A stretch of 64,000 nt of DNA from Bdellovibrionales bacterium (GCA_965217115.1 OZ244239.1:320001-384000); one strand, 5' to 3'. Shown: positions 6,118 to 28,466, counted from the first letter of the stretch. Numbers and translations are program-made. Notes: generated by a model not told the origin, from the letters alone.

Positions 6118-6933
6118 TTACAGAGCCTTGCCTACTTCTTTTAAGAGGGCTATCACCTTATTGACTCCCTTTGTTCTCAACTTATCAGATCTAAATATTA
6201 ATGAGATCTCAACATTGGGACGAAATCTCTTAATCAAAACAAGCCCTCCTACACTCTCTTCCACTTGATTTGGCAGTAGGCCCATAAAATTATTCCCTTT
6301 CAAAACCGAATAGAGAACATTGTAGTCATTTAACTTCCTGGTTATGCATCGTGGGTATCTCGCCAATATTCTCTGGGCATGAATCATTAACGAATTGTAT
6401 AATATCGTCTCCCTCTCAGCACCATCCCTTGAATACAATCCAATAAACTCATCCCATAACTTGATCTTCACAATATCAGGGTAGGCTTTCACATCAGCCA
6501 CTATCGCTATATCTGATTCAAATTTCATCACACTTTCAACAGCATCTCTAGAATTCTCAAAACTATATTCAATGGAAATCCCACTTAAAGTAGACATTCT
6601 AGCTTCAAACTCTGGAATGATGTGTCTACCCAAAATGGGGTGTACAGAGATTTTATAATGACCATGAAGCCCATCTCTTAACCCCTTAGCATTCATCTCA
6701 GTATTTTTTAATTCTCTAATGATTTTGTTAAAACCTCTCTGGTAAACAGCGCCCTCTTCTGTCAATTTCAAACCCCTCGGAAGCCTCAGAAAAAGTTTTG
6801 CCCCAAGCTCCTCCTCCAGTGCCTTTATCTCACGGGACAAAGAGGGCTGTGAAACCCCTAAAAAATCAGCCGCCTTTGATATATTCAGATACTTGCATAC
6901 TGTAGAAAATACATTTATCTCTCTTATATCCAT
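6118..6933 (-). CDS. LysR-family transcriptional regulator
   Basis: N-terminal HTH NISKAADFLGVSQPSLSREIKALEEELGAKLFLR...LTEEG; divergent from the 7072-9101 operon. Confidence 0.95.
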   Translation of the reverse strand: MDIREINVFSTVCKYLNISKAADFLGVSQPSLSREIKALEEELGAKLFLRLPRGLKLTEEGAVYQRGFNKIIRELKNTEMNAKGLRDGLHGHYKISVHPILGRHIIPEFEARMSTLSGISIEYSFENSRDAVESVMKFESDIAIVADVKAYPDIVKIKLWDEFIGLYSRDGAERETILYNSLMIHAQRILARYPRCITRKLNDYNVLYSVLKGNNFMGLLPNQVEESVGGLVLIKRFRPNVEISLIFRSDKLRTKGVNKVIALLKEVGKAL

Positions 6934-6944
6934 ACAAATAAGAT

Positions 6945-6978
6945 ATATCAGCTATTAGTATTCATGTATAGCTAATAT
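6945..6978. promoter_or_regulatory. Inverted repeat in the divergent promoter region; candidate LysR operator
   Basis: ATATCAGCTA-N14-TAGCTAATAT (9/10 complementary), just upstream of the LysR start codon. Confidence 0.4.
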
Positions 6979-7071
6979 TTTGTTTTTTCTATAAACTCCT
7001 TTTTAAGAGATCAAGGGAGCCTACACTCTGGTCTTGCAACTATTAAATTTTTTCCTTAAGGAGGACATACC

Positions 7072-7488
7072 ATGAAAATCACACTTAACATCATTAAAAT
7101 TCTTAGCCTACTCTTCTTCTCTACATCAGCTATGGCAGCAGAACATCTTGTAGATATTAAAGCCTTTCAATTTGTTCCAAATGAAATTTCAGTGCAACCT
7201 GGAGATACGATCGTTTTTACAAATCGTGACAGCGCTCCCCATTCAGTCGTGCCCAAAGAAGATTCCTCTGGAGTATTTGAACCCAGTTCTGTTCTCTCCA
7301 CAGACGATCAATTCACCATGGAGATACCCAGTGAAATTAACAGTATTGAGGCTGGCTGTGGTGTGCACCCTCGTATGCCAAGTATTACAATCCTCATTGA
7401 GACAGAATCACAAGTTCTTCTTAAAGAAATCAGGCACAGACTGAATAAATTAGAAACTATTATTACAGCCAACGGGAAACGACTCTAA
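7072..7488 (+). CDS. Secreted cupredoxin (plastocyanin/amicyanin-like blue copper protein)
   Basis: Signal peptide (AMA|A), F.P.EISV.PGDTIVFTN.D.APHSV, and C-x2-H-x2-M (CGVHPRM) type-1 copper ligands; strong AGGAGG RBS. Confidence 0.9.
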   Translation: MKITLNIIKILSLLFFSTSAMAAEHLVDIKAFQFVPNEISVQPGDTIVFTNRDSAPHSVVPKEDSSGVFEPSSVLSTDDQFTMEIPSEINSIEAGCGVHPRMPSITILIETESQVLLKEIRHRLNKLETIITANGKRL

Positions 7489-7489
7489 T

Positions 7490-7930
7490 ATGCTATCAGT
7501 CCTTCTACGAATGACGATTATGCCCTTTTTTATCTCTTTAATGTTAATCTCTTGCAGCCAGGAGCACATGTCATTGAGTGATTTAGAATCTCCAGGTGAT
7601 GAAGATATAAGCTTTAGCGAAGTTTATACAAAAATACTACAACCAAAATGTAGTACCTGTCACTCTGGAGCGGGGGCCCCCAAAGGGCTCGATATGATCA
7701 CTGAAAATAGCGCTTTTGAGAATCTGGTTAATCAATCCAGCCAAGATCGGTCTACTGTGCTACGGGTTTCTCCAGAGAATTCCAACCCTGAGAGTAGTTA
7801 CCTTATTGCAAAGATAATTTCTGACGACACCTCAAGAGATAATTCACGAATGCCTCTAGGTGGACCTTATTTAGAGGAAGAAGACATTAACTTTTTAAAA
7901 GAATGGATTAACTCTGGTGCGAAAAGATAA
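7490..7930 (+). CDS. Monoheme c-type cytochrome lipoprotein
   Basis: Lipobox LISC, heme motif CSTCH, distal Met in RMP, C-terminal EWI..GA helix. Confidence 0.85.
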   Translation: MLSVLLRMTIMPFFISLMLISCSQEHMSLSDLESPGDEDISFSEVYTKILQPKCSTCHSGAGAPKGLDMITENSAFENLVNQSSQDRSTVLRVSPENSNPESSYLIAKIISDDTSRDNSRMPLGGPYLEEEDINFLKEWINSGAKR

Positions 7931-9101
7931 TATAAAATTCGGTCTATTGTTAATCACACTGCTCATTCCCTTCTCTTCATGGTCACGTCCAGAGTATGCC
8001 AATAGAGTTAAAACAAATTGCAGCGCCTGCCACTATAACCCTACAGGTGGAGGACCAAGAACTGTATTCGGTAAGACCTATGGCTCCCATGGTTTTAGTA
8101 TCGCAAAAAGCTCCCTGAAAGATTTAATATATGGAGACTTTCGCGCACTTTATTTTCTCCCCGAAAAACCTCTCAAAAGTAAAAATGGTGCTGCATTAAT
8201 GAAGGCCAGCTTAGCAGTCAATATTGAGATTGAAGACAACGATGAGAAAAAAATGTCTGCCCTATTCCACTATGATCTAGGTCTTCTCTCACATCAACCT
8301 GTTAGGGAGGCCTACATCAAATGGGCCACTAAGGAATCTAAGTTAATTATTGGTCGATTCTATTTACCCTTTGGACTCTTAACAGACGAACATCGAACAT
8401 ACACAAAAATTCAAATCAATACCTCACTAAGAAATTTTGAACTCGGCGCACTCTATTCAAATGATTTAATGCAAGAACTCCACTATGATGTCTCCCTCAC
8501 AAATGGACTCAGATCTTCTGGTGGAGACTTTACAGAAAATGGTGATCAAACCTTTGCCATCAACGTCAATTTCAGATGGAACCCCATTGGGAAATCATTT
8601 CTACTCGGCAGCAGTATCCTACATCAAGCAAGTCAAAAATATCGTCCACAACCCTTGGCCACTTCTATTTACGGTGTCTGGGCTTTAGATCAAATGTGGG
8701 CTCAGCTTCCAAAAATAGATGTCCTCAGTGAAGTCGTTTTGGCTGACGGCTTTAACCAAGGTGAATTTAATCCATGGATACCTATCTACTTTACTGGAGA
8801 ACATCAAACTTGGAACGATAATCTCCAACTTAGCCAATCCTTGGGGCTTTTACTAAAACTAAAATGGACAATTAACAATCACTGGAAACTCCATTATAAA
8901 TTCGATAGAATTCTATTAGATTCCAGATTTGGCGGAGATCAATTCACCAGACATGGTCTTGGTTTCGGATATCAGTGGAGCTCTAATTCATCCCTGTCAG
9001 TCAGATTAGAAAAGGCCTTCGTTGGACGCGATGATTTTAATACCGACCGAATACTGGCTGCACAAAATGCCATTCATGCAGTATTTAGAACATGGTTTTG
9101 A
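7917..9101 (+). CDS. Cyc2-like N-terminal monoheme cytochrome / outer-membrane beta-barrel fusion
   Basis: Signal peptide, then PEYANRVKTNCSACH...RTVFGKTYGSHGF, followed by amphipathic beta-strand-like sequence ending in an aromatic C-terminus (FRTWF). Confidence 0.72.
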   Translation: MRKDNIKFGLLLITLLIPFSSWSRPEYANRVKTNCSACHYNPTGGGPRTVFGKTYGSHGFSIAKSSLKDLIYGDFRALYFLPEKPLKSKNGAALMKASLAVNIEIEDNDEKKMSALFHYDLGLLSHQPVREAYIKWATKESKLIIGRFYLPFGLLTDEHRTYTKIQINTSLRNFELGALYSNDLMQELHYDVSLTNGLRSSGGDFTENGDQTFAINVNFRWNPIGKSFLLGSSILHQASQKYRPQPLATSIYGVWALDQMWAQLPKIDVLSEVVLADGFNQGEFNPWIPIYFTGEHQTWNDNLQLSQSLGLLLKLKWTINNHWKLHYKFDRILLDSRFGGDQFTRHGLGFGYQWSSNSSLSVRLEKAFVGRDDFNTDRILAAQNAIHAVFRTWF

Positions 9102-9155
9102 CTCCATAGACAAAGACCCATGACCTTTAATCATTGACGATAATGGTGGAAATGT

Positions 9156-10058
9156 TTAACAGGGAATTAAATCTTTCTTTAGCTCTTCTGGAGGCTCTTC
9201 CGACCACAAACTCAACACAAACCCCCCACAACCTGAACCCGTTGGTTTTACTGAAGCAGCTCCATGGTCTTTTAAAAAAAACATATGCTCATTCAACTTG
9301 CTCGAAAGAAGATCCCATTCCTGAAAACACTCTCTAGCTAATTCAATACCCTTGCATAAAAGCGGGAATCCCTCTGCCTCTCCACAAGCTAACGCTTTTT
9401 CACATAAATCCACTGCCTCAGACATTTTACCATCCAGAGAGGTTAAAACTTCTGGGGCCTTCTCACCCATTTTCTGCACTCTCTGCACACAATCACTCGT
9501 ATTTGATTTTTCACCACTATAAGATAAAAACCAATGGGGTTGCCACTTGATTTCCAATGGACGGCGAACTCCTTTTTTTTCAAAGTAAAGCCCTCTACCA
9601 CCTAGTGCCACAGCAATGTCTAATCCACTGCTCTGCCCATGGAACAGGTCTTCCAATCCACGGGCAAACTCATAGACTTCCGACTCTCTCTTTAAACCCA
9701 AGGCCGCCACCCAACGGGAGATAATCACACACAGAGACGCCGAAGCACCGATACCAGCCCCAAAGGGCAAGTTATTATGAACAACCAACTCACCCTTGAT
9801 AGCCTCCAAAGTAACTTCGCACTCCTTCAAAGCACGATCAATCACCTCTTGCACCGTCTTATGTAAGTTTTGATCAATCTCGCAATGAACATGCAAAGAG
9901 AATTTCTGATCTGTCTTCGTATAACTAAGAGTCATCTTCTTACCAATGACAGGAAACACCAGCGCTGGACAACCCCTAAGAACAGAGTGTTCACCCGCTA
10001 AAATCCACTTTCCATAGGCCTCAGTTTTGAATATTCCTGCCATCTCTGACTCTTCCAT
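9156..10058 (-). CDS. mvk: Mevalonate kinase (GHMP family)
   Basis: GKWILAGEHSVL, PFGAGIGASAS, HGQSSGLD and KPTGSGCGG motifs; cluster context. Confidence 0.88.
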   Translation of the reverse strand: MEESEMAGIFKTEAYGKWILAGEHSVLRGCPALVFPVIGKKMTLSYTKTDQKFSLHVHCEIDQNLHKTVQEVIDRALKECEVTLEAIKGELVVHNNLPFGAGIGASASLCVIISRWVAALGLKRESEVYEFARGLEDLFHGQSSGLDIAVALGGRGLYFEKKGVRRPLEIKWQPHWFLSYSGEKSNTSDCVQRVQKMGEKAPEVLTSLDGKMSEAVDLCEKALACGEAEGFPLLCKGIELARECFQEWDLLSSKLNEHMFFLKDHGAASVKPTGSGCGGFVLSLWSEEPPEELKKDLIPC

Positions 10059-10085
10059 ATTTAACCCTTCTTAATCGCATTAAAT

Positions 10086-11087
10086 TCATGAAAAATCACG
10101 ACTGTCAATCACTGAGAACTTTCCATTAAAAGAAGCGCTTAAAGAATCCAATATCTCTGCCTGATCCTCTCTAAACAATAAGTGTACATTCGCTCCAGCA
10201 TCCATAGTTACAATGGGACCATCAGAAAATTGATTCCACTGCTCACGCACGGTCTCTAAAACTTCCAAAGACCCGGAAGACATATAACCAAATGGCGGAC
10301 AACTCGTCTCAAACAGAGAATGCATGTCCCAAAACTCTGACCATGTGACTTCATAAGCCCTACGCCAGTCTTTCTTAATAAGGGCCTCTTTTAATTCCCT
10401 TAGTCTGTCTTCAGCACGAGTCACTCGACCTGAAAACAAAGCACTTTCCAAAATTTTTACATGGGCTGCAGAAGATGACACCTCTTTCTTCTCTTTACTC
10501 ACCACCACGCATAAGTGCAGTAGATGATTGTAAGGTATTTTGCTAATCTCTTTAACTCCCTCTTGACCCCACTCTACCCAAGAATTTATATTCCTCGATT
10601 CCATAAAAGAACGGCACGACGATCCCGACCCCCTACGACTCAATTCTATCATTTCAAGAAGAGACAACTCCTTTCCCGTCTCTTCACCCAGAGCCTGACA
10701 AGCGGCCAAAGTTAAAGCGGCAAAACTCGATGCAGAACTTGCCAGCCCACAGTCAGATGGGAATCCATTGGTAGAACGAACGTTAAAGTTTCCCACATAG
10801 GAAAACTCCTTTTTTATCGCACTCAAATGATTCAAATATCTTTTCTGTCCCTCTTCTGAAAGCTCGACTTGAAAACCTCCCTTGCTAAAGGTCTTTGTCA
10901 AAGGCTTCCAACTGTCACAAGTGTCATCTGTTTTTTCAATCTCAACATAGGATCGTAAATGCCCAAGAGTGTACGATAGTGAAGAGTTTGTAGGCTTGTT
11001 TACACTCGTATCCGATTTACCCATGTACTTAATCAATGCAATATTAGAGGGGGCTGAGGCTTTCCATGTTTTCATCTCACACACCAC
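10086..11087 (-). CDS. mvaD: Diphosphomevalonate decarboxylase
   Basis: APSNIALIKYMGK, GLASSASSFAAL, RRGSGSSCRS and TMDAGANVH motifs. Confidence 0.95.
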   Translation of the reverse strand: MVCEMKTWKASAPSNIALIKYMGKSDTSVNKPTNSSLSYTLGHLRSYVEIEKTDDTCDSWKPLTKTFSKGGFQVELSEEGQKRYLNHLSAIKKEFSYVGNFNVRSTNGFPSDCGLASSASSFAALTLAACQALGEETGKELSLLEMIELSRRGSGSSCRSFMESRNINSWVEWGQEGVKEISKIPYNHLLHLCVVVSKEKKEVSSSAAHVKILESALFSGRVTRAEDRLRELKEALIKKDWRRAYEVTWSEFWDMHSLFETSCPPFGYMSSGSLEVLETVREQWNQFSDGPIVTMDAGANVHLLFREDQAEILDSLSASFNGKFSVIDSRDFS

Positions 11088-12042
11088 CCATGGCTACGAT
11101 AGGTAGGTCCTTACTAGAAAATAATTCGAGCAACGACTCTTTATAGTCATTCGCAAAAAAAACAAGTATCGTATCGGCCCCCATCGCTCCGCAACCTTTG
11201 GCCGCAAGAACTCCTCTCTCATTTTTAATAAAAGACAGCAACTCCTTCGTGTATGCTGCCACCCAATTTCTCTCAGAGAGAAGATCGCCATATTTTTTAA
11301 TACTCCCCAGAAATAAATCATCTAACCCTTCACGTAAAGACTTCTGTAACTCTAAAACCACCTCAGTAAAGTCATTTACATCACCCAACAATAATGAATT
11401 CAAATGCTCATGGGTGGATAACTTCTTCCCCGTACGCAAAATCAAATAACCCATATTAGAAAAGGGCCACGACAACTGAGAGTAGGGTGAATCTCCCTGA
11501 CAAGAATCAAAAAAAATAGCACTCTTATCCCCATGATCACCGTTATCAGTATTGCCTTCATCAATATACGTTCCAAAAAGCTGCGCTATCAAGTCAACAC
11601 CACTAGGTGGAATCCCGACCCCACTCCAAGCCATTGAACGATAAGCATCAAGTAACGAACCTGTTTCTAAGGACGAAATATCTGATAATTCCTCTAATGA
11701 TGGAGAATCTGCCGACAAAAGATACACCAACAGGAATTGTGCCGTTGAAGCTCCAAACCCACCTTGCCCTTTATGGGGGTCATAAAAGAAACAACTCTTC
11801 TGTGAAAACACTTCTGAATACAAATCCATCCACTTCCCCGCTGGACTTTTACAGTGTAACGCCTCACTAAGAAATTCCCCAATAAATTCACCACTCGATG
11901 CAGACCCATGGGCTTCATCTTGTTTAGATAAAAAACCACATTGAAAATAAGGTGCAGCCGTCAATAACACCGACGGACCACCCATCAACGTTGCATACTC
12001 ACCACATAAAAATGTCTTACTTGGAACTTTGCAGGTTTTCAT
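11077..12042 (-). CDS. Probable phosphomevalonate kinase (divergent GHMP kinase)
   Basis: PSKTFLCGEY, GFGAS, SGVD and KGCGAMGAD GHMP motifs; second GHMP kinase in the mevalonate cluster. Confidence 0.75.
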   Translation of the reverse strand: MKTCKVPSKTFLCGEYATLMGGPSVLLTAAPYFQCGFLSKQDEAHGSASSGEFIGEFLSEALHCKSPAGKWMDLYSEVFSQKSCFFYDPHKGQGGFGASTAQFLLVYLLSADSPSLEELSDISSLETGSLLDAYRSMAWSGVGIPPSGVDLIAQLFGTYIDEGNTDNGDHGDKSAIFFDSCQGDSPYSQLSWPFSNMGYLILRTGKKLSTHEHLNSLLLGDVNDFTEVVLELQKSLREGLDDLFLGSIKKYGDLLSERNWVAAYTKELLSFIKNERGVLAAKGCGAMGADTILVFFANDYKESLLELFSSKDLPIVAMGGV

Positions 12043-13348
12043 ATCTCAGCTTACGAACCTCTTGTAAAACTTCAATGGCTTGACTCAAAGAGATTCTCTT
12101 CGTCGTCATTAACATTTTCTCTAACTGTTTACGCATTAAAGGGATTTCCTCTTCTCTAGCTCCCGCTCCTAAAGCTAAATTATTAATGTGTAGCTTCATA
12201 TGACCACGAACAATACCCTCATCGGTCAAAGCCTTCAACGCACCGAGATTCTGCACCAACCCCACTGCCGCAATCACAGATGACAACTCACCAGCCGACC
12301 CAACATTGAGCATATTCAAACACATCTTGGCCGTTGGATGTAAACTCGTCACCCCACCCACTGTTCCCACGATAATCGGGGCGCGCAGAGTTCCCACTAA
12401 GTTTTTTCCCTCTACCTTCCATTGAGTTAAAGAACGATAACGACCGCCACGAACACAATAGGCGTGCATTCCCGCCCCCACAGCACGCCAATCATTCCCT
12501 GTAGCAATTAAAATAGGGTCAACTCCATTAAGAACCCCTTTATTATTGGTCGCTGCACGATAGGGGTCTTGCTCGGCAAACAATGAAGCTTCTTCAATCT
12601 TGTGAGCCATCTCTAAATCAACATTCTCAATAGTAGCTCGAACTTCCGTCAATTTAGAATCAACGAGATTCGATAAAATACACATCGTCACCTTGTCGCC
12701 CGTTAACTTTTCAATATAGGGTTTTAAAAATTCACAGACCTGATTAATAATATTTGCACCCATCGCATTACAGGAGTTCAAATAAATATGAACCACTGCC
12801 ATATCACCGCCACTGCCGTCATCTTTTCTCGGTACACGACGAACCGTGATATCTCCCACGCCGCCACCACGCTTAACCATATTTACGACAGCTTTCTCGT
12901 TACACATTTCTATAAGACGTGACTTATGATCTTCTATCATCTGTGCAAATTTTCCATAATCTGTAACATGGGCCACCTGCACCTGCCCGATGATCTCATC
13001 ACCAATCATGCGACTCTCTATACGACCATTTTGCCTAATCCACTTAGCATTCTTACAACAGGCGGCCACGATGGATGTCTCTTCCACCGCCATAGGTACA
13101 ACGTAATCCTTGCCATCCACATTTAAATTAGTAATCACCCCCAGGGGTAACTGAAAATAACCAATCACATTCTCAATGAATTTCTCACCAAGAGTTGGGT
13201 CCTTGATTCCACCCTGATTTAAATACTCAATATCAACAGGATCTAAAGCGCCAAATTCAATCAAACGCCCAAAACGCTCTTCACGTGAGAGTTTTGAAAA
13301 GCCAGAAAACAGTGCGGAGACTGTGTCTTTTACGTCTTTCTTGTCCAT
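12017..13348 (-). CDS. mvaA: HMG-CoA reductase, class II
   Basis: ENVIG, PMAVEETSIVAA, AMGAN, RAATNNKG, GNDWRA and GHMKLH motifs. Confidence 0.95.
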   Translation of the reverse strand: MDKKDVKDTVSALFSGFSKLSREERFGRLIEFGALDPVDIEYLNQGGIKDPTLGEKFIENVIGYFQLPLGVITNLNVDGKDYVVPMAVEETSIVAACCKNAKWIRQNGRIESRMIGDEIIGQVQVAHVTDYGKFAQMIEDHKSRLIEMCNEKAVVNMVKRGGGVGDITVRRVPRKDDGSGGDMAVVHIYLNSCNAMGANIINQVCEFLKPYIEKLTGDKVTMCILSNLVDSKLTEVRATIENVDLEMAHKIEEASLFAEQDPYRAATNNKGVLNGVDPILIATGNDWRAVGAGMHAYCVRGGRYRSLTQWKVEGKNLVGTLRAPIIVGTVGGVTSLHPTAKMCLNMLNVGSAGELSSVIAAVGLVQNLGALKALTDEGIVRGHMKLHINNLALGAGAREEEIPLMRKQLEKMLMTTKRISLSQAIEVLQEVRKLRYENLQSSK

Positions 13349-14382
13349 ACCTGTCTCTGTCGTAATTCCTCTAGATTTTCACAGCCCGTGCAAAACATCG
13401 CTGTCCTTAACTCAAACTCCAACTGCTCCATCTCTTGCAACAGTGATTCATAACCCTCAATGGCCGCCTTCATCATCGGCATCGCAACACCAACCATTCC
13501 AGCACCCATAGCCAATAACTTAGCACCATCGACTCCTGAACGAACTCCCCCAGAAGCCCAGACATGGTAATCTTTTTTTATCTCAAGAGCACTCAACATC
13601 GAATTCACTGTACTAATGCCCCAATCCTGAAAAGACGTGAACGCCTTAGCCCGCGTGTCGTTTTCACCAGCCCTTAAACTTTCAACCCTTCCCCAATGGG
13701 TCCCACCAAGACCACTCACATCCACAGCAAAAACACCCAAACCAATGAGCTTCTGTAATGTTCTCTGTGATAATCCCGTTCCTGTTTCCTTCACAATGAC
13801 TGGAACCGATAGCCCTTGGCAGAGGCGAGAGATCGCCTCCGTTCCACCACGGAAATCAGTCGTTCCCTCTGGTTGAAAACACTCCTGCAAAGGGTTCAAG
13901 TGAACCACCATCGCCCCAGCACCGAGACTCTTCACTAATTTTTCTACACTGCTCACGGGAGTTTTAATCAACTGCGCCACACCAATATTGCCAAGAAATA
14001 AGACATCAGGCGCAAGCTCTCTGACCCTCTTCCACTCATCTCCTGCATCAGAATCTAATAACTCCTTGCGCTGGGAACCCACACCCATCACCCAATTTTT
14101 TTTCTGAGCCCCACGGGCCAATGTCTGATTAATAGATAACGAATCCCCATGACCAGCCGTCATACAGCTAATAAAGAATGGACTGTTTATTTTTTTAGAA
14201 AACAACGAACACTCAATAGAGACATCGGAACAATTAATATCAGGTAAAGCCTCATGGATAAGATCAATATCCTCAAATCCCGACAGTCCAAAGGCTTGAG
14301 TTCTCCCATCCAAAGCTAAACGAATATGATCTCGTTTACGCTCTTCAAAAATTTTATTTTTCTCAATATCTGTAAGAGCCAT
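13330..14382 (-). CDS. fni: Type 2 isopentenyl-diphosphate isomerase
   Basis: RKRDHI, MTAG, GVGSQR, HLNPLQE..QPEG, VKETG, GGTHW and SGGVR motifs. Confidence 0.95.
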   Translation of the reverse strand: MALTDIEKNKIFEERKRDHIRLALDGRTQAFGLSGFEDIDLIHEALPDINCSDVSIECSLFSKKINSPFFISCMTAGHGDSLSINQTLARGAQKKNWVMGVGSQRKELLDSDAGDEWKRVRELAPDVLFLGNIGVAQLIKTPVSSVEKLVKSLGAGAMVVHLNPLQECFQPEGTTDFRGGTEAISRLCQGLSVPVIVKETGTGLSQRTLQKLIGLGVFAVDVSGLGGTHWGRVESLRAGENDTRAKAFTSFQDWGISTVNSMLSALEIKKDYHVWASGGVRSGVDGAKLLAMGAGMVGVAMPMMKAAIEGYESLLQEMEQLEFELRTAMFCTGCENLEELRQRQVWTRKT

Positions 14383-18999: not shown

Positions 19000-20199
19000 T
19001 CAGTAGATAACTTGGTGATTACAAGATTCCTGCACACGCGGGTCTTTAAGAGGCACAAGATTGTTCTTGGCCAAAAACTGATGGAAGGTCATCAAGAACA
19101 ATCCGCCAAACCCCAGCAATATACCAATCTCCCAACCAGAAAACTGGGGAATATTTCCATTAAAATTTGGATACACCAACCAGTAAATATCTACATACTG
19201 AGTGATAATCACCAACACACTCACAGCAATCAGATGACCGTAACTCCTCTTAGCCGCTTTAGGCAATAACGCCACAAAGGGCACAATAAACTTAAACACC
19301 AACAAGAAAAGTGAAACCATCATCCAACCATTGTGCGCTCTCTCCAAATAAAACTCTGTCTCTTCAGGAATATTTGCATACCAAATCAACATAAATTGAG
19401 AGAAAGCAATATAAGCCCAAAAAACGGTAAAACCTTTCAAGTATTTTGCCAAATCATGAATATGCTCACCCGTCACTAAACCATTAAAAAGCCCCTTACG
19501 TATGGCCCAAATCAAAGTGATAATCATAAACGCCAATGCCGCCTGCAAAGACCCCACAAAACAATAGACACCATAAATCGTACTGTACCATGTCGGTTGA
19601 AGGCTCATCAGCATATCCACCGAAAATATCGAAAACGAAAGGGAGTAAAAAACAAGAAAGGCTATGGAAATCAAACCATTCCTGCGACTGTGTTTCCAAT
19701 CACCATCAGTGTCCTGCTTGATTGAGTTCCCCACTATGTATTTCCTAAAAACTAACCAGCCCAATACAAAAACAACTATACGAATGGCAAAGAAAGAAAA
19801 ATTCAAATACCCCGTTTTGGAGCGAATCAAAGCGCTGTTCGCCAAAACATCCCCATTCAACCAAGGGTAAATAAGCTCAACGCCCATAAAATAAACTAGG
19901 GACCCTACTAAAATCCAAGGGAAAAACCCTGTCATCGCCTCCATAAAACGACGAATATTCACACTCCAACCAGCATTGGTCACAAATTGTAATGCAATGA
20001 AAAAAAGCGTGGTCACAGATATCCCCGACACAAAAAAGAAACTTGTTAAATAGGAAGTCCACAACCTCTCAGGATTTCTCATCAAACCGGCAATGAAAGT
20101 CAATAATCCGATAAAAATACACACTGAGTATAAAGTTTTTGTACGAGTGGAAATTTCGTATTTTTCTGGATTGATCGAAAAAACCTTGTTGTGACTCAT
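19000..20199 (-). CDS. actF: Alternative complex III subunit F
   Basis: Polytopic membrane protein with MSLQPTWYST, HDLAK and FSQFMLIWYANIPEET; last gene of the act cluster. Confidence 0.9.
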   Translation of the reverse strand: MSHNKVFSINPEKYEISTRTKTLYSVCIFIGLLTFIAGLMRNPERLWTSYLTSFFFVSGISVTTLFFIALQFVTNAGWSVNIRRFMEAMTGFFPWILVGSLVYFMGVELIYPWLNGDVLANSALIRSKTGYLNFSFFAIRIVVFVLGWLVFRKYIVGNSIKQDTDGDWKHSRRNGLISIAFLVFYSLSFSIFSVDMLMSLQPTWYSTIYGVYCFVGSLQAALAFMIITLIWAIRKGLFNGLVTGEHIHDLAKYLKGFTVFWAYIAFSQFMLIWYANIPEETEFYLERAHNGWMMVSLFLLVFKFIVPFVALLPKAAKRSYGHLIAVSVLVIITQYVDIYWLVYPNFNGNIPQFSGWEIGILLGFGGLFLMTFHQFLAKNNLVPLKDPRVQESCNHQVIY

Positions 20200-20225
20200 A
20201 AACCCTACCTATTATTAATATTTAT

Positions 20226-20783
20226 CTACTCTTCCGAATTTTGTTTTTGCAAATTACGAACATAATTCACTAGTTCCCAACGGAATTCTGCAGGAACAAT
20301 ATTACGATAACTACCCATTAAACCCTGACCTTCGGAGATAACATGATAAATACGGCCGTCAGTGTAATTTCTTACTTTCTTAGAAATTAATTTCGGCATC
20401 GGTAATGGCCATTTCTTAGACACAGTTCCATCTCCCTTCCCTGTATGTCCATGGCAAACAGCACAAGCAATTTCGTAATACTTGCGACCTCTCTTTAATA
20501 TTTGGGGAGTCATTTTACCCCTCAAAGGGTTCTTGTTACGATTAGCCCCCTCGATATTATCCTTGTATTTATAGGGCGTAAATCCTCTAGGAACAGTCCC
20601 CTTAGGTGGCACTCGCATCGCTCGACCGTGGGGATTAGAAGCATCACCCTCTTGAGTTTTAATACTTTCAGTTTCCATCATATCTTGGATCAACTCAACG
20701 TTGGGCCTTTTCTCATCACTGCAACTAACAATAGTCAACAACACCCCGGTTAATAATACGATCGTCAATGCTATCCTATTCAT
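20226..20783 (-). CDS. actE: Alternative complex III subunit E, monoheme cytochrome c lipoprotein
   Basis: Lipobox IVSC, MRVPPKGTVPRG, CAVCH and DG.IYHVI..G.G.M; start placed at ATG 20783 (GAGG RBS). Confidence 0.88.
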   Translation of the reverse strand: MNRIALTIVLLTGVLLTIVSCSDEKRPNVELIQDMMETESIKTQEGDASNPHGRAMRVPPKGTVPRGFTPYKYKDNIEGANRNKNPLRGKMTPQILKRGRKYYEIACAVCHGHTGKGDGTVSKKWPLPMPKLISKKVRNYTDGRIYHVISEGQGLMGSYRNIVPAEFRWELVNYVRNLQKQNSEE

Positions 20784-20826
20784 TAAGAAAAAACCTCTTT
20801 TTACCGTCTCTACTATTTTTATCAAT

Positions 20827-21348
20827 TTAATACTCCGCAATTTTTTTTATTTCTTCAGCGCCCACTTCATTAAAAATCTCACGCACACGATTCTCATCGT
20901 AACCGTAATCCGTCTCTGGAATAAACACAGCAAACTTGTGAGAAGTTAAATCCAAATCAATCACTGGTGGATTTACCTTAGGCAGACCGCAGGCCACTAA
21001 TAAACTACCAATTGTTGCTAAAGCACCAAATAAAATAGTTAACTCGAAAATCACAGGAATAAATGCTGGTAAAGAAAAATAAGGCTTCCCACCTATATTG
21101 ATTGGCCAATCCACAGCCGATGTCCACCAAGTTAACAAGAATCCTGCACACAATCCTGTCAGGCCTCCAAAAAATGTTATCCAAGGAATCCAAGAACGTT
21201 TAATTCCAATAGCCTCTTCCATCCCATGCACAGGATAGGGGGTGATTGCATCGAATTTTCGAAACCCCGCTTTACGCACATAAATCGCCGCCTTGATCGT
21301 TGCGGCTTCATCACTCCATATACCAGCTAACCCACTGACTTTAGCCAT
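20827..21348 (-). CDS. actD: Alternative complex III subunit D (DUF3341)
   Basis: [17 protein letters not shown] and [13 protein letters not shown] motifs; start at ATG 21348 with GGAGG. Confidence 0.9.
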
Positions 21349-22717
21349 GATCCTCCTCCTCTTTTCCAACATGTAAACAAGGCTTCACCTCTGCAATAGA
21401 AATTGCTGGGAAGACTCTCAAGTAAAGCAAAAAGATCGTGAAGAACATACCGAAACTACCCAAGAGAATCATGGTATCGTAAATACTCCACTCGTACATT
21501 CCCCAGTTAGAAGGCAAAAAATCTCGATGTAAAGATGTCACCGTAATCACAAAACGTTCGAACCACATACCGATATTGACAAAGATAGAAATAACAAACA
21601 TCACTGGCAAACTACGACGGAAGCGTCTAAACCAAAAAAGCTGGGGAATTATCACGTTACAGCTAACCATAATCCAGTAAGCCCACCAGTAAGGACCAAA
21701 AGCACGGTTTACAAAAGTAAATGATTCATAATCATTCCCCGAATACCAAGCAATAAAAAATTCAGACCCATAGGCGTAACCCACCATCAACCCCGTGGTC
21801 ATAATGATCTTATTCATCACCTCCATATGATCAATCGTCACATAATTCTTAAACTGAGGAAAACCCTCACGCACAAGAACCATCAAAGTGATCACCATCC
21901 CGAAGCCTGAGAAAATTGCCCCTGCCACAAAATAAGGAGGAAAAATAGTTGTGTGCCAACCAGGAAGACCTGCCACCGCAAAATCAAAGGAGACAATCGT
22001 ATGAACTGATAAAACCAACGGCGTGGCTAAAGCCGCCAAAAGCATGTAAAGCATTTCATAATGACTCCAATCACGGGCCGAACCTCTCCAACCCAAAGAC
22101 AACATGCCATAAATCTTTTTTCTTATTTTATGTTTTGCCCGATCACGAATGGTCGCAAAATCAGGAACCATTCCAATATACCAAAATAAAATCGATACTA
22201 TTGCATAAGTCGATACCGCAAACACGTCCCATAACAAAGGCGATCTAAAATTCACCCATAGAGGGCCCCGTTGATTCGGGTACGGTAATAACCAAAAATC
22301 AAGCCACGGACGACCCGTGTGCAACAATGGAAAAAGTCCCGCCGTCATCACTGCAAAAACAGTCATTGCCTCCGCCGTCCTCGCCACTGAAGTTCGCCAT
22401 TTTTGACGAAACAAGAACAGCACCGCAGAAATCAGCGTTCCCGCATGACCAATTCCAATCCAGAAAACAAAGGTCACAATATCAGTTCCCCATCCGACTG
22501 GATGATTCACCCCCATTAACCCCATACCCGTCGACACAATGATTGCAATAGCGACGATATACATAAAAAACACGCTCTTTGCAGCAAAGAACATTGCAAA
22601 CCAGCCCTTGCCTGGCATGGATTCTAGAGGAGAACAAATATCCTCTGTCACATCACTTAAGCTCTTATTGCCAGTTACTAAAATTTTCCTATTCGGTGAA
22701 TAACTATCGACACTCAT
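21341..22717 (-). CDS. actC: Alternative complex III subunit C (NrfD/PsrC family)
   Basis: [36 protein letters not shown] and [12 protein letters not shown] motifs. Confidence 0.95.
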
Positions 22718-25700
22718 TAGTGATGACCTCCATCATGTGCCGCAGTTGTCTTTTCATTGTTGCGAACCTTCGTCTGATAACGTATCACCGAACCCGCATT
22801 AAATTCTTCAAGGGCCGTGAATGATCTTGCGTCTTTATAACTCTGACTCACCTTACTCGTAAGATCATTGAAATCACCAAAAACAATGGCATCAGTTGGA
22901 CAGCTCGACTGACAAGCCGTCACCACATCTCCATCCCTTAACTTACGATTCTCATCCTTGGCCTCATTCTTAGCCGATTTAATTCTCTGCACACAGAAAG
23001 AACACTTCTCCATGACACCTCGACTACGAACTGTCACTTCAGGGTTATAAACCATTTGTTCTGGTTTTTCTAAATCCTTGTGCAAGTTAAACCAATTGAA
23101 ACGACGTACTTTATAAGGACAATTGTTGGAACAATAACGAGTTCCCACACAGCGGTTATAGATCATTTCGTTTAACCCTTCATCACTGTGACTGGTCGCA
23201 ATCACTGGACAAACTGTCTCACAAGGGGCGTTGTCACAATGTTGACAGAGCATTGCCTGAAAAACTGAATCTGGATTTTCTGGACTTCCAGAAAAATAAC
23301 GATCAATGCGAATCCAATGCATCTCACGCCCCTGCATCACATATTTTTTGCCCACTGTCGGAACATTGTTTTCCGCCTGACAAGCCACCACGCAAGCCGA
23401 ACAGCCCGTGCACTGATTCAAATCAATGGTCATGGCCCACTTATGTCCCTTGTACTCATGTGTTGGCCAAATACTAAAAGTAGGATGCTTATGAATACCT
23501 GCACGATTATCCTTCAAGTAGTCCTTTAAAGTCACATCCAAGGCAATCGGTCGACCGTGGGTTGTGTGCTGATCTTGGGGACTCACCAAGGAATATATTT
23601 CAGCATCCACCTTTTCAAAAGAAACCTTCAACCCTGAGGCGACAACACCTGAACTGGAAACATTCAAAAGAGAGTACGCATTCACACCCACTCCATCACC
23701 CACTTTCCCCGCAGCCCTTCGACCATAGCCCAAAGCTAGACCGAGAACATCATCATGCACACCAGGGGCTATATGAACAGGAACTCTCAGTTCCCGATCT
23801 CCCACCTTTAGTGTTACAAGTTGACCTTCTTTGAGAACCTTCTCTTCAGCGGTTTTCAATGAAACATTTAAGTAATTATCCCAAACAATCTTCGTCACAG
23901 GGTCAGGCAGCTCTTGCAACCAAGAGACATTCGCCATTGAGCCATCCCCAATAGAATTTTTTGTGTATAAAACCAATTCATAACCATCACTCTTGAGACG
24001 GCCAATACCTTTTAAAGAACCCACCCGAAAAGAGCGGGAATTCTGAGTTTTATTTGCAGAATTTGAAATGGCAAAAAAACCAGCTTGCAAAAGCTTTAAC
24101 CAGCGATCCTCAAAGGAACCTGAAATCCATTTTTTAGTAAAAATACTGTCTTTCCAGTTTCTGCGCAAATAAGTGTACCAGTCTTCAGACTTATTCTGCC
24201 ATTTCAACAGAGAGTCCTGAAAAGATCGAGTGTCATACATGGGGCTGATTGTCGGCTGTTGCACATGGTACAAGCCTCTGTACATTTCAGCATCCCCCCA
24301 ATTCTCCAAAGGATGATGATCAGGGGCTATGTAATTTGCCAACCGACCCGTTTCATCATTGCGATCCCCCGTATAAACAACCAAATCCACTTTCTTGATA
24401 GCTTCATGGAAACCCAAACTCTCAGGCAACGCATAGGCAGGGTTAACACCATGAACGATTAAGGTTTTTACCTGACCCGCTTTCATCGCTTCTACTAATT
24501 TCACAACATCAGCGTACGACCCACGGGGAGTCACCATGGCCTCTTTACCGTGGGAAACAGTCTTCCCATCATTGCGCAAAACATGATTTAAAAAATTCAC
24601 CGCTGTCTGAAGGGATAATGCATTTTCCGTCTGCGCCTCTAACCCCCCTGCTACAATTAAACTCTCGCCACGATGCTGCCAAAGTTTCTGTGCCAGTTGA
24701 CTAAACACTGCTTCCTCAATTCCCAATTCAACAGCCACGTTTGCAAATGGCTTAAGAGCCCTTGTCACCGAAGACTGAAACTTGTAGGAAGAATGTCCTT
24801 GTTTGATAATCAGTTCATGCAAGATTCCCATGACCACATCAACTTGCTGTGACGGCTTAATACGAGTGCGAATATCAGCGTTCATACCCGTTAAACTCAT
24901 ATTAGATTCAAAAACAACAAGCTGACTCATCTGCTTGCCTGGTTTACGAGACTTGGAAAAATCTTTGGTGAAAATCGTTGGCGTCAACCAGGTTCCCAAA
25001 AAATCCGCACTCACTGACACAATCACTTTTGCCCGATCAAAACGATAGCGTGGCAACACCGCTCTACCATAACTTAAACTCTGCCCCGCGATCACATCCT
25101 CATTTGAAACTGGCTCCCAACGATGATGTTTCACACCGTAACGATTTTTAAATTCTTTCACTAATTTTTCCGTGGACGGAGAGTTTATCTCTCCACTCAG
25201 AAGAGCCACGCGCCCTCTCTTCAAGGCCGTCACCACTGATTTGTCCATTCTCTTCCATGAAGTGGACACCGTATCGCGATTGGCTTTCTCTTTATTCAGA
25301 AGATTTCTCTTGGGCCCCTTAATACGTTCAGGATCATAGAGACGTAAAATATGGGCAATTGCACGGGGGCTCATCCCACCACGATTTGCAGGGTGATCGT
25401 GATTCCCCTCCACTAAAATAGGACGACCTTCACGGGTTTTCACCAACAAGCCATGGGACTCCAAACCATCTGTCCAATTCGAAGCGTACCAATTAGGCAT
25501 ACCCAAAATCAGCTCTTCAGGACGGTTCACATAAGGCACAATTTTCTGCACAGGTCGGCGTAAACAGCTAACAGATCCCAGAGCCAAACTAGCTCCCATC
25601 AGAGTTAAGAACTCACGGCGCGCCCAGCCTCCATCTTTATCTCCTTGGGATTTTTCATCCTCTTTAAATGGAGAAGATTGGAATTCCTCTTCGGCTAATT

Positions 25701-25779
25701 TTTGGAATTGAGAGTCACCAGCCCACTGTTCAAGGCTTAGCCAATACTTTGGAGATTCATTCATTGCTTTTTTATCCAT
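22717..25779 (-). CDS. actB: Alternative complex III subunit B (molybdopterin-oxidoreductase-like plus Fe-S domain)
   Basis: YWLSL, Tat-type RREFL signal, and C-terminal Fe-S motifs [37 protein letters not shown] and MEKCSFC. Confidence 0.95.
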
Positions 25780-25806
25780 TAACCATAACTCCAGTTTTTT
25801 CTTAAT

Positions 25807-26340
25807 CTAATGATGACAAGCCGTGCAATCTAAAGATGCTTTATTCTCTGGCTTGCGATGACAATTTACACACCAGCCCATTGATAAATCAGAATGTTGT
25901 TTTAACACTTTCATTTTTTCCACTTCTCCATGACAGGTGGTACAAGAAACTCCTCGCTTCACATGCCGTCTATGATTGAAATGAACAAAATCGGGAAGCA
26001 TATGCACCCTCACCCACTCAATAGAGCCCCCATCATGATAAGCCGTCTGTAATTTCTCAATGTGTGGGCTATCAGTTTTGATCATTATGTGACAATTCAT
26101 ACAAATATTTAAACTCGGCACCGCTGCCTGTTTAGAACGTTCTGTTTGTGTGTGACAATACTGACAGGGAATTTTATAGGTCCCCGCGTGCAGTGAATGA
26201 TCGTAGGGAATGGGTTGTTTCGGAGCATATCCCCTATTATAACCAATCTCTGGACGCTCACAGCCCGTTAAAGAAAGTCCTAAAATAAAAAACAATCGTA
26301 CAAGCAAAGTATTCTCCCCTAATCTGCTCATCCTTAACAT
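25807..26340 (-). CDS. actA: Alternative complex III subunit A, pentaheme cytochrome c
   Basis: P.QPIPY.H..HAG and five CxxCH motifs (CQYCH, CMNCH, CTTCH, CVNCH, CTACH). Confidence 0.93.
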   Translation of the reverse strand: MLRMSRLGENTLLVRLFFILGLSLTGCERPEIGYNRGYAPKQPIPYDHSLHAGTYKIPCQYCHTQTERSKQAAVPSLNICMNCHIMIKTDSPHIEKLQTAYHDGGSIEWVRVHMLPDFVHFNHRRHVKRGVSCTTCHGEVEKMKVLKQHSDLSMGWCVNCHRKPENKASLDCTACHH

Positions 26341-26741: not shown

Positions 26742-28466
26742 TCACAAGGTCAATTTCGAGCGCTCTTTGCGCACCGTGTAAACACCTGAGACATAGACAA
26801 TATGCAAAGCTATAAAACCAGACACGTACTCAAGTCCTCCTCCACCAAAACCGTAGGAATGAAGTCCCGCTCCTAAAATATAATTAACTCCATACCAGGC
26901 CATAATAACCAGAGAAAATGACAGCACTCCCCCTACGATCATACCAAAATTACGCAACCAACCAGACATACGACCATGCAGCATGGCCAAGTATCCTAAC
27001 AAGGCAATCAAGGCCCAGGTCTCTTTAGGGTCCCACCCCCAAAAACGCCCCCAAGAGTAATCCGCCCAGACACCACCTAAAATAGTTCCCGCTGCTAAAA
27101 GCACCACTCCAATCTGAATGCAACGATAAATAGAATCCACCACAGCACGCACACGGGGTGAATGATCTCCGTCTCCACGCAGATAATAAAAAAGTCCCAC
27201 ATCTGCTAAACCAAACGCCAAGAAAAAGGCCGCATAACTAATCGTGATCGTCAAAACGTGGATCATCAGCCAAAGGTTACTCCGTAGAACAGGCTCCAAA
27301 GGCTGCAAGCTGGAATCCAAAATTACTGGCGCCATCCCCGCCACTATAAGAGCAAAGAACCCCACGACCGATCCTGCCAGAAACACCATCTTCTTGCGAT
27401 AAATAACTCCTAAAACCATGGCAAAAAGCACCACACCAAAAGACACCCACACCACTGTCTCATACATATTCGACACAGGGGGACGCCCCGTCAAATACAC
27501 ACGCAAAGCAAATCCATAGATGTGAATAAGAAAACCTGTCACCATTGACCCTGCCCCCAAAACAGTCGCCCATGAACGATGGCCACCCAAAGCAAAACCC
27601 CAAAAAATAGATGCCACTAAATAAAAAATCCACGCCCATAAAAAAGGTTGGAGATCATTGTAATGAACCTCCAAGGAAATTTCTTTTTGACTAGGGTAGG
27701 CCTCTGGATTTCTCTGACGAGCTAAATCTATAAAAGTTGACACCTCCTTTTCTAAATTTATTTCAGCCACGGCTTTTTTCTCTTCTGCCCCCTCTTTTTG
27801 AGAAGCTGAAATCACTCCTAGGAATGCTCTTGTTAAGGATCTAAATTTTTCCTGAAACTCTGTCTCTAACTGAACTAAAGACCCCCATGCAGTCTCCTCG
27901 CCCTTCCATGACGTTTTCTTTTGATTCTTCATATTCCTTTTATCAGGTGGTAAAACCCGAAGCCCATTCCCAGAGGCAATGTATCTAAAGGTTCTGAACT
28001 GATCCTCTAAACGACTCACTGCTTGATAATAAGCATCTAGCTTTACCTTTTGCTGACGCTGATTATTCAACTCTTGAAATAGTAAAACCATTCGAGGATT
28101 TTCAAAAACCTCTACGGGTGAAAAATATTTCTGCTCTCTCTCAAGTTTTAAACTTTTTTTAATATCCCTACGATTGATCTCTACCATTTTCTTTTCTAAC
28201 CACATTTTGGGCGTTAACATCCAAGTAAACACCACTTCCGAAGCGGATCGACCGTGATAAGATTGCTTGCCATAAATAAGTTGCAACGACTCTCGCGCAA
28301 AAGTGTCATAGGGTTTCACCCGCCCCGCCGCCTGCACTGGTAAATATTTTAATGACTCAGTTCCACTCGAAGAACCCAAAAAAGGCTTTGCAAAAGCGCC
28401 TTCACTCAACCCAACAACTGCAATGATAGCTAAACTCATCAATTCACTGTAACGCTTGCACTTCAT
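26742..28466 (-). CDS. ccsA: Cytochrome c biogenesis system II, CcsA/ResC-type
   Basis: WWD domain GGVWADYSWGRFWGWDPKETW, GRPPVSNMYE and GLHSY; start at ATG 28466, overlapping the upstream stop (ATGA). Confidence 0.92.
   Translation of the reverse strand: MKCKRYSELMSLAIIAVVGLSEGAFAKPFLGSSSGTESLKYLPVQAAGRVKPYDTFARESLQLIYGKQSYHGRSASEVVFTWMLTPKMWLEKKMVEINRRDIKKSLKLEREQKYFSPVEVFENPRMVLLFQELNNQRQQKVKLDAYYQAVSRLEDQFRTFRYIASGNGLRVLPPDKRNMKNQKKTSWKGEETAWGSLVQLETEFQEKFRSLTRAFLGVISASQKEGAEEKKAVAEINLEKEVSTFIDLARQRNPEAYPSQKEISLEVHYNDLQPFLWAWIFYLVASIFWGFALGGHRSWATVLGAGSMVTGFLIHIYGFALRVYLTGRPPVSNMYETVVWVSFGVVLFAMVLGVIYRKKMVFLAGSVVGFFALIVAGMAPVILDSSLQPLEPVLRSNLWLMIHVLTITISYAAFFLAFGLADVGLFYYLRGDGDHSPRVRAVVDSIYRCIQIGVVLLAAGTILGGVWADYSWGRFWGWDPKETWALIALLGYLAMLHGRMSGWLRNFGMIVGGVLSFSLVIMAWYGVNYILGAGLHSYGFGGGGLEYVSGFIALHIVYVSGVYTVRKERSKLTL

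Follow-up and report, generated by a model that had tools for sequence, protein, structure and literature searches.

A LysR-linked cupredoxin, lipoprotein cytochrome and haem-barrel operon in a Bdellovibrionales bacterium: a candidate outer-membrane electron conduit remotely related to Cyc2

The window analysed here is a stretch of 64,000 nucleotides (nt) from a Bdellovibrionales bacterium (GCA_965217115.1, OZ244239.1:320001-384000), and the system in question is a four-gene locus in which a LysR-type regulator gene diverges, across a control region, from three genes encoding an exported cupredoxin, a lipoprotein cytochrome c and a haem-barrel fusion protein (Table 1; positions are counted from the first letter of the window). 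The cupredoxin and cytochrome genes are separated by a single nucleotide (7489), the cytochrome and barrel genes overlap by 14 nt (7917-7930), and a scan for terminator-like sites saw none between the three plus-strand genes. An earlier note on this DNA had described a LysR gene divergent from three coupled genes with this gap and overlap, and had named the four component classes (LysR, cupredoxin, CxxCH lipoprotein and CxxCH/barrel fusion); the layout is as it described, and Pfam matches, motifs and AlphaFold2 models show the four classes to be real. On balance, we favour reading the regulated three-gene operon as an inducible conduit that would carry electrons inward, from outer membrane to periplasm and on to the oxidases.

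The haem-barrel protein consists of a signal peptide (residues 1-23, an n/h/c-type leader recognised by inspection), a haem domain (24-68) and barrel strands (71-393), and its C-terminal residue is phenylalanine. C35-x-x-C38-H39 (8019-8033) is the sole CxxCH of the open reading frame (ORF). The AlphaFold2 model (predicted local distance difference test score, pLDDT, 85.5; predicted template modelling score, pTM, 0.84) has 16 strands, with the haem motif on short helices (residues 24-67), and its top Foldseek matches are PorB (E 7.5e-13), OprP (2o4v, E 3.6e-12) and OprO (4rjw, E 8.5e-12). Whether this protein of 394 amino acids (aa) folds as a barrel had been named beforehand as a point on which the proposal could fail, and both the modelled strands and the porin matches uphold it. 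No family match was found for the protein in Pfam, where the phosphate-selective porin O/P family (PF07396) gave none, or in NCBIfam; sub-threshold Porin_O_P signals were obtained with sister proteins (E 0.0075 and 0.031) and with an Atlas neighbour cluster. A search of PDB sequences with the barrel profile returned nothing significant, the best E being 0.028 for the haem motif alone.

The CxxCH is invariant in all 34 aligned barrel homologues. Among the residues invariant in this alignment are C35, C38, H39 and M95, together with the charged D157, E158, H159, R160, D191, R220, E272 and E365. A conserved loop, PFGLLTDEHRTY (residues 151-162, at 8367-8402), joins strands 5 and 6 (PFG..DEHR). 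The family also includes haem-less barrels of 360-376 aa (P0174, P0175, P0180 and P0185; L051-L053), which retain the strand-2 methionine (M95) and the PFG...DHR loop.

The published criteria for Cyc2 are a signal peptide, one CxxCH, a length of at least 365 aa and a 16-strand OprO/OprP-like porin, along with the motif A-x-P-x-F-A-R-[Q/K]-[T/Y] upstream of the CxxCH and P-x-L after it (PMC8406198); OprP and OprO are the published templates for Cyc2 (PMC8406198; PMC13741234). The window barrel has a signal peptide, a single CxxCH, 394 aa (at least 365) and a 16-strand porin. The comparison set for Cyc2 was obtained by scanning metagenome contigs for the back-translated motif with CxxCH, which yielded 52 complete ORFs of 405-591 aa with the full signature, P-x-L included. 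The published spacing between motif and CxxCH was inferred from PMC13741234 and from the metagenome pattern scan, in which nearly all matches have three residues between motif and Cys.

When the barrel family alignment (A1) was aligned by hhalign against the 52 Cyc2-motif ORFs, it scored 97.0% (E 1.2e-10, 300 columns), and it scored 95.8% (E 7e-9) after removal of the signal peptides and 96.7% (E 3.3e-10) with the 45-residue haem domain only; reversed controls gave 0.6% and 0.1%. The Cyc2 of A. ferrooxidans has a 31-aa signal peptide and an axial His47, which makes its first Cys mature residue 12 (PMC13741234). The predicted cleavage of the window barrel (SWS/RPEYA) likewise makes C35 mature residue 12, i.e., the same register. 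The N-terminus of mature Cyt572 is YPGFARKYNF by Edman degradation, which places the motif at the very N-terminus, as in the window barrel. By alignment, the haem domain is a remote homologue of the haem domains of Cyc2-motif proteins.

Altogether, 51 barrel homologues were found at 29-42% identity, the named ones all being annotated 'hypothetical protein' and belonging to Bdellovibrionota or Oligoflexia; the 25 barrel loci from species-representative genomes all come from Bdellovibrionota metagenome-assembled genomes (MAGs). The family profile matches 201 of the 301 sampled Bdellovibrionota genomes (E <=0.001), 16 with full-length proteins (source genome included) and four with haem-less barrels. 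The remaining matches mostly span positions ~6-165 within open frames of 355-440 aa, and the seven partial matches that were inspected (L034-L039 and L050) are sister haem-porins. In one genus, the profile matches all 18 genomes, and in an all-against-all representative library it finds 142 clusters at E <=1e-30 and 1847 at E <=0.001. A tblastn search of the barrel against plasmids gave no match. Given the proportion of matching genomes, the haem-porin system is usual for the phylum and not an oddity of this genome; the earlier note's remark that such a system is not expected in this lineage hence does not hold.

Two further observations concern the barrel relatives. In the sister haem-porin subfamily (L034, L036, L038, L039 and L050), proteins of 352-379 aa carry the N-terminal pattern A-F-P-E-M-x-R-H-G-Y-x-x-C-x-x-C-H, and a YceI-like gene (PF04264; lipid- or quinone-binding) lies between or beside the cytochrome and barrel genes. 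In locus L024 (OZ251471.1, 5911-7211), a barrel homologue is broken into ORFs of 248 and 174 aa, which hints at a stop or a frameshift.

The lipoprotein cytochrome has a lipobox, L-I-S-C22, recognised by inspection, and a haem site at C54-x-x-C57-H58 (7649-7663); M121, followed by P122 (7850-7855), is the likely sixth haem ligand. Its Pfam scores fall below the cut-offs, with 19.7 against 22 bits for PSCyt1 (PF07635) and 17.1 against 21.3 bits for Cytochrom_C, and relatives exceed the PSCyt1 cut-off in L002 (25.1 bits), L034 (34.0), L036 (24.9) and L050 (23.5). An alignment was made of 34 related domains of ~90 aa from genes neighbouring barrel homologues: CxxCH and M-P are invariant in all 34, and a tryptophan is nearly so, a pattern that appears to mark an electron carrier with one His/Met-ligated haem. 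AlphaFold2 gives a confident, mostly helical model (pLDDT 86.3), and Foldseek found no match to it at E <=0.001, the weak rows being mostly class-I cytochromes c.

A CxxCH protein is the immediate neighbour of the barrel in 20 of the 25 loci. The five exceptions are L003, with a type-1 cupredoxin, L020, with a ChaN-type (haem/iron uptake) protein, L006, with neither, L024, where the barrel is broken, and L025, at a contig end. A partner hidden Markov model (HMM) was iterated from the haem domain of the window lipoprotein, and a match was counted when its gene lies within ~600 bp of the barrel. On this count, the partner stands beside the barrel in 17 of the 25 genome loci, 4/5 same-order loci and 5/6 sister-subfamily loci. 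Independent of the construction of the HMM are its matches in L050-L053, a test on the source genome itself and a control on Cyc2 loci. In the source genome, two of the 4836 ORFs match strongly, both of them abutting a CxxCH-x-x-P-x-GGG protein: one is the window gene, the other a gene for a 293-aa dihaem protein beside a 538-aa dihaem protein. The HMM also matches the dihaem lipoprotein of genome G180 (locus L050) and all three genes that lie immediately 5' of haem-less barrels and overlap their start, as in the window (G042, G140 and G128, i.e., L051-L053), which encode PSCyt1 lipoproteins of 131-137 aa. Among the 1856 ORFs of 80 canonical Cyc2-motif loci it has no match, though 19 of 75 loci carry another CxxCH ORF. 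Given its recurrence in three barrel subfamilies and its lack of matches in the Cyc2-motif loci, these profile matches indicate that barrel and PSCyt1 lipoprotein are a conserved core, specific to these families.

The slot of the third carrier is variable. A soluble cytochrome c (~95-125 aa) adjoins the barrel in 8 of the 25 loci and in 5/5 same-order loci, a YceI-like protein takes the slot in the sister subfamily, and in the window, L003 and G180 it is filled by a cupredoxin.

The window cupredoxin matches PF00127 with 28.7 bits against a cut-off of 21.2 (plastocyanin match, E 6.8e-6), and with its His/Cys/His/Met ligands it belongs to the type-1 class. Its signal peptide ends at AMA/AEH, and its copper ligands are H57 (7240-7242) and C96-x2-H99-x2-M102 (7357-7377). 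In a phmmer search of PDB sequences, an ungapped alignment to amicyanin chains (query 24-102, chain 20-98) covers H57, C96, H99 and M102; the copper ligands of amicyanin, which we take to be H53, C92, H95 and M98, would thus be in register with them. A C-terminal tail of ~30 aa follows the copper loop, and we read it from its sequence as probably helical. A word-indexed search of 5.8 billion proteins found only the window's own cupredoxin and its own lipoprotein cytochrome, with no close relatives. Among 300 other Bdellovibrionota genomes searched, a close orthologue of the cupredoxin is present in one, G180, at 46-51% identity.

More distant cupredoxins were seen in other settings. In L042 (G246:C1:276512-278288), tandem cupredoxin-domain repeats occur in a pair of neighbouring ORFs, one of 337 aa and one, lying at the edge of the locus, of at least 225 aa; they give five matches to the window cupredoxin at 33-42% identity. 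In L043 and L045, distant relatives (30-34% identity) lie directly 3' of an exported protein of 172-187 aa of another conserved type; no haem-porin is found within 1.5 kb, hence this is another cupredoxin context.

In Pfam, the regulator exceeds the cut-offs of both HTH_1 (68.3 bits) and LysR_substrate (32.8 bits), which places it in the LysR-type class; against NCBIfam, no equivalog cut-off was reached. In the control region, a strong ribosome-binding site (AAGGAGG, 7058-7064) lies 7 nt 5' of the cupredoxin ATG. The dyad AGCTAT-N12-ATAGCT (6950-6973) is a candidate LysR site and no more; in AT-rich DNA, chance could well produce a dyad of 6 bp. Promoter-like sites occur no more often than in shuffles (11 observed, against a mean of 9.3).

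The LysR/cupredoxin pair recurs in G180. The cupredoxin orthologue there (51% identity) retains CGVHPRMP, the copper ligands and the C-terminal tail, and the LysR beside it is 30% identical to the window LysR over its full length (E 1e-37). The pair is divergent from an operon of YceI, sister haem-porin and dihaem PSCyt1 genes (L050). The 9-mer GGTATTCCT occurs exactly twice in the 16 kb of L050 (G180:C66), at 8307-8315 on the minus strand and 9135-9143 on the plus strand; the copies flank the LysR gene and face outward, each ~85-100 nt upstream of a transcription unit, which is the cupredoxin on one side and the YceI/haem-porin/cytochrome operon on the other. By expectation there would be 0.10 copies, and 1 of 200 shuffles reached two. 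The 9-mer is a candidate LysR operator in G180, and its placement argues that LysR, cupredoxin and haem-porin operon are one regulon there. The G180 arrangement lends support to taking the four window genes together as a unit, on the strength of a single other genome. As a separate observation, the right-hand copy forms a dyad, ATTCC-N5-GGAAT, of the T-N11-A type.

The proposal that the genes co-occur in other genomes thus stood in part: the cytochrome/barrel pairing is consistent and all four classes are found together in G180, yet LysR and cupredoxin are rare accessories. With the window LysR and cupredoxin as queries, BLASTP gave no matches in the 25 barrel loci. The LysR-like ORFs that adjoin cupredoxins in L048 and L049 were left out of the count, since neither resembles the window LysR at E 1e-3.

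The source genome is a single contig of 2,170,531 bp, 99.4% complete. It encodes two haem-copper oxidases, one of them fused to FixO, which are cytochrome-c-dependent and of caa3 and cbb3 type, and CxxCH is present in just 28 of its 4836 ORFs of at least 60 aa. The setting described before, with trmH on one side of the locus and the mevalonate cluster on the other, is confirmed by Pfam, the upstream gene being a SpoU methylase. The suggestion that the module feeds alternative complex III (ACIII), encoded 10 kb away, found no support: housekeeping genes intervene, and ACIII is the quinol:cytochrome c reductase of the genome. A foreign origin of the operon was considered and rejected. The operon is not marked as foreign, given that its GC content (0.39-0.40) equals the genome mean (~0.40), and its weaker GC skew agrees with its coding strand.

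Table 1. Features of the four-gene locus and its surroundings in the window.
Feature	Position	Strand	Basis
LysR-type regulator, 271 aa	6118-6933	-	HTH_1 and LysR_substrate Pfam matches
Divergent control region, 138 bp	6934-7071		Read from sequence
Type-1 (blue) cupredoxin, exported, 138 aa	7072-7488	+	PF00127
Lipoprotein cytochrome c, monohaem, PSCyt1 type, 146 aa	7490-7930	+	Lipobox and CxxCH
Haem-barrel fusion, 394 aa, GTG start	7917-9101	+	CxxCH and AlphaFold2 16-strand barrel
GidB and SpoU methylase	Upstream of the four-gene locus		Pfam
Mevalonate genes	9156-14382, downstream		Pfam
IF3 and ThrRS	After the mevalonate genes		Pfam
Alternative complex III (ACIII)	~19000-26340		ActD PF11821, E 1e-59
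CcsA/ResB cytochrome c maturation genes (system II)	26742-29968		Pfam

Two side observations concern the source genome as a whole. It has a very strong replication-strand GC skew, ~+/-0.15-0.22 per 50-kb bin, whose sign flips near 170 kb and 1,240 kb. Since the negative arm contains the window, the haem-porin operon is on the strand opposite most of its neighbours. Elsewhere, at G000:C1:1315935-1318443 (partly covered by L027), there is an apparent second module built on the same principle, in which a 293-aa dihaem PSCyt1-type gene (1315935-1316816, plus strand) is convergent with, and 10 nt from, a 538-aa gene (1316827-1318443, minus strand). The 538-aa protein has two N-terminal CxxCH, the second in the CxxCH-x-x-P-x-GGG-x-R context of the window barrel, ends in phenylalanine and may be a larger two-haem porin fusion.

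On the reading we favour, LysR would respond to an inducer and control a three-gene operon whose products form a short electron chain, leading from outer membrane to periplasm. The barrel protein would be a Cyc2-like pore with one covalent c-type haem on the first ~45 mature residues, its haem domain lying at or in the pore's periplasmic mouth, in line with the models of Cyc2 (PMC13692758, PMC13741234). The pore would admit a small reductant in solution (Fe2+, if Cyc2 is a guide), which would be oxidised at the pore haem. The electron would then pass, presumably by physical contact, to the periplasm-tethered lipoprotein cytochrome as the direct partner of the barrel, from there to the cupredoxin, and finally to the caa3-type or cbb3-type oxidase. 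The soluble cupredoxin would act as a shuttle in the slot that a soluble cytochrome c of ~100 aa holds in most related loci. Fe(II) is our leading guess for the substrate, solely because every characterised superfamily member that the cited papers name (Cyc2, Cyc2PV-1, Cyt572 and Cyc2TAG1) is an Fe(II) oxidase (PMC8406198, PMC13692758, PMC13741234). Cu and Mn would be equally conjectural as substrates.

Several observations weigh against this reading, the kinship with Cyc2 included. The upstream Cyc2 motif is absent: the family reads A-R-P-E-Y-A-x-K-x (consensus A-x-P-x-Y-A-x-[KR]), with the register kept and with P, A and K/R retained, while F is replaced by Y, Arg is not conserved and [T/Y] is missing; the window barrel itself reads S-R-P-E-Y-A-N-R-V. 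The downstream P-x-L is absent as well, since Pro stands at His+4 in Cyc2-motif ORFs and at His+3 here, followed by x-G-G-G-P-R, which gives A-R-P-E-Y-A-x-K-x ... C-x-x-C-H-x-x-P-x-G-G-G-P-R as the consensus of the haem region. When the barrel without its haem domain was aligned against the Cyc2-motif barrels, hhalign gave no significant result (0.7%, E 0.075), and the comparison ORFs, our own selection by motif from metagenome contigs, are putative Cyc2 proteins. The AlphaFold2 barrel model carries no haem. The haem-less relatives retain M95 and the D-H-R of the conserved loop, hence the conservation of these residues does not prove that they ligate the haem. There is some circularity in the partner HMM, which was built iteratively from the neighbour ORFs that it counts, and cupredoxin and LysR are rare, with a close cupredoxin orthologue in 1 of 300 other genomes.

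Given that the published motif rules fail, we count the window barrel as a distant relative of Cyc2 and not as a member. We conclude that the window barrel is a remote Cyc2 relative with the same architecture, from a sister family that the published screening rules would exclude.

Electrons might instead flow outward, with periplasmic electrons (from ACIII, cytochrome c or the cupredoxin) leaving via the lipoprotein cytochrome and the pore haem to reduce an outside acceptor, e.g., Fe(III), Cu(II), humics, superoxide or peroxide, for the purpose of metal acquisition or detoxification. The direction cannot be read from the components, since His/Met cytochromes, like cupredoxins, carry electrons reversibly, and the ChaN-type haem/iron uptake protein adjoining the barrel in L020 would suit this alternative; type-1 cupredoxins, however, are usually of high potential, suited to accepting electrons towards an oxidase. 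For one Cyc2 homologue, a potential down to -130 mV is published (PMC13692758), and the superfamily hence spans a wide potential range. A preprint has both oxidative and reductive FeGenie extracellular electron transfer hits in Bdellovibrionia MAGs, its available part giving them without detail. Outward flow is at odds with the uniform Fe(II) oxidation among the characterised superfamily members, and we consider it rather unlikely. A quite improbable alternative is that the main task of the barrel is to conduct a solute (a metal ion, or phosphate or another anion), as in its fold relatives OprP and OprO; haem and cytochrome would then gate it, sense redox or condition the solute, and respiration would not be fed by them. 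The top fold matches are general and phosphate-selective porins, weak Porin_O_P signals come from sister proteins and the Atlas neighbour cluster, haem-less members exist, and many charged residues of the barrel are invariant. Nevertheless, no transporter or binding-protein gene lies within the operon, electron carriers adjoin the barrel in 20 of the 25 loci, and the cytochrome partner is kept by 3/3 haem-less barrels, which suggests that redox chemistry is the constant feature.

It could also be that two unrelated units abut, LysR and cupredoxin being a copper/redox-stress unit and only cytochrome and barrel forming a system. By BLASTP, this cupredoxin and LysR are missing from 24 of the 25 barrel loci, the L003 cupredoxin is unrelated, and other cupredoxin relatives occur in contexts with no haem-porin within 1.5 kb. 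We regard such chance adjacency as very doubtful all the same, given the 1-nt gap between cupredoxin and cytochrome genes with no terminator-like site between them, the return of the sole close orthologue pair (G180) to the side of a haem-porin operon with a shared upstream 9-mer, and the third, independent cupredoxin that adjoins an A1-type barrel in L003.

The conduit reading matters in part because Cyc2 is a marker gene for microbial iron oxidation, and the window family shares its architecture and haem domain yet fails its motif rules, and it occurs in a phylum noted for predators and not for lithotrophs. If outer-membrane electron transfer is true of it, redox exchange in Bdellovibrionota would be far commoner than annotation suggests, marker-gene surveys would have to tell Fe(II) oxidases from sister haem-porins, and the PSCyt1 lipoprotein would gain its first functional context. 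A broader view, which we think unlikely, is that of a phylum-wide porin-cytochrome system in Bdellovibrionota, with a 16-strand barrel, an obligate PSCyt1 lipoprotein, an optional barrel haem and interchangeable carriers (cytochrome c, cupredoxin or YceI). Small-genome predators would then exchange electrons outside the cell, e.g., with dissolved Fe(II) or with redox material of the prey envelope, and Cyc2 would be just one specialised branch of a far larger superfamily of outer-membrane haem-porins. The operon's small size makes it convenient for reconstitution: two of its proteins have one haem each, and the third has one copper.

In the available parts of the sources, a literature search for Cyc2-like or cytochrome-porin systems in Bdellovibrio or Bdellovibrionota found no description of the window barrel family, and the supplements of PMC7029218 contain no Bdellovibrio, Oligoflexia or Bacteriovorax terms. 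A literature search of like scope found no experimental function for the PSCyt1 domain. The common pattern of that domain ('Planctomycete cytochrome C', PF07635) is CxxCH ... MP ... W-I-x-x-G-A; here it is a stand-alone lipoprotein beside a haem-porin, and relatives carry 2-4 tandem copies. With amicyanin and plastocyanin, the window cupredoxin shares the PF00127 match above cut-off, and its four copper ligands are in register with amicyanin, whereas the extra C-terminal tail of ~30 aa, kept in the G180 orthologue, is its own.

Among outer-membrane proteins, OprP/OprO, PorB and OmpF/OmpC have the same 16-strand fold (Foldseek E 7.5e-13 to ~1e-10, query-normalised template modelling score 0.53-0.59). 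Unlike the window barrel, however, OprP/OprO and the general porins have no N-terminal haem domain, and they are 8-15% identical to it in sequence. MtrAB, MtoAB and PioAB are alike in that an outer-membrane barrel is encoded with a separate cytochrome, a split design which the haem-less barrels with their lipoprotein resemble. They differ in that barrels of ~26 strands sheathe a decahaem cytochrome (PMC10654088), whereas the window unit has 16 strands and one or two haems.

The fused cytochrome-porins of the Cyc2 type (A. ferrooxidans Cyc2, Mariprofundus Cyc2PV-1, Ghiorsea Cyc2TAG1 and Leptospirillum Cyt572) share with the window barrel a conserved segment at the mature N-terminus, a CxxCH at ~residue 12 and a 16-strand OprP/OprO-like barrel in ~400 aa, and a periplasmic cytochrome and a cupredoxin are encoded in the same operon, as in rus. 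In contrast, the window family has its own invariant loop and P-x-GGG-P-R in place of P-x-L, its barrel sequence is not detectably similar, and both the PSCyt1 lipoprotein partner and the confinement of named members to Bdellovibrionota are its own features.

The parallel drawn before with the Acidithiobacillus rus operon (cyc2-cyc1-cup-cox...-rus) stands as regards the component classes, both systems having a haem-porin in the outer membrane, a c-type cytochrome in the periplasm and a type-1 copper protein (PMC10654088). It breaks down over the gene set, cytochrome type, cupredoxin type and regulator: the window unit has three genes, with no oxidase or haem A genes, its cytochrome is a PSCyt1 monohaem lipoprotein where that of rus is a dihaem c4, its cupredoxin has an amicyanin-type C-x2-H-x2-M loop and is not a rusticyanin, and the unit is LysR-controlled, in a neutral-GC, heterotroph-type genome of 2.17 Mb. 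To the known systems, the window adds the A1 subfamily, a cupredoxin replacing the soluble cytochrome, LysR control, and haem-less barrels that retain the PSCyt1 partner.

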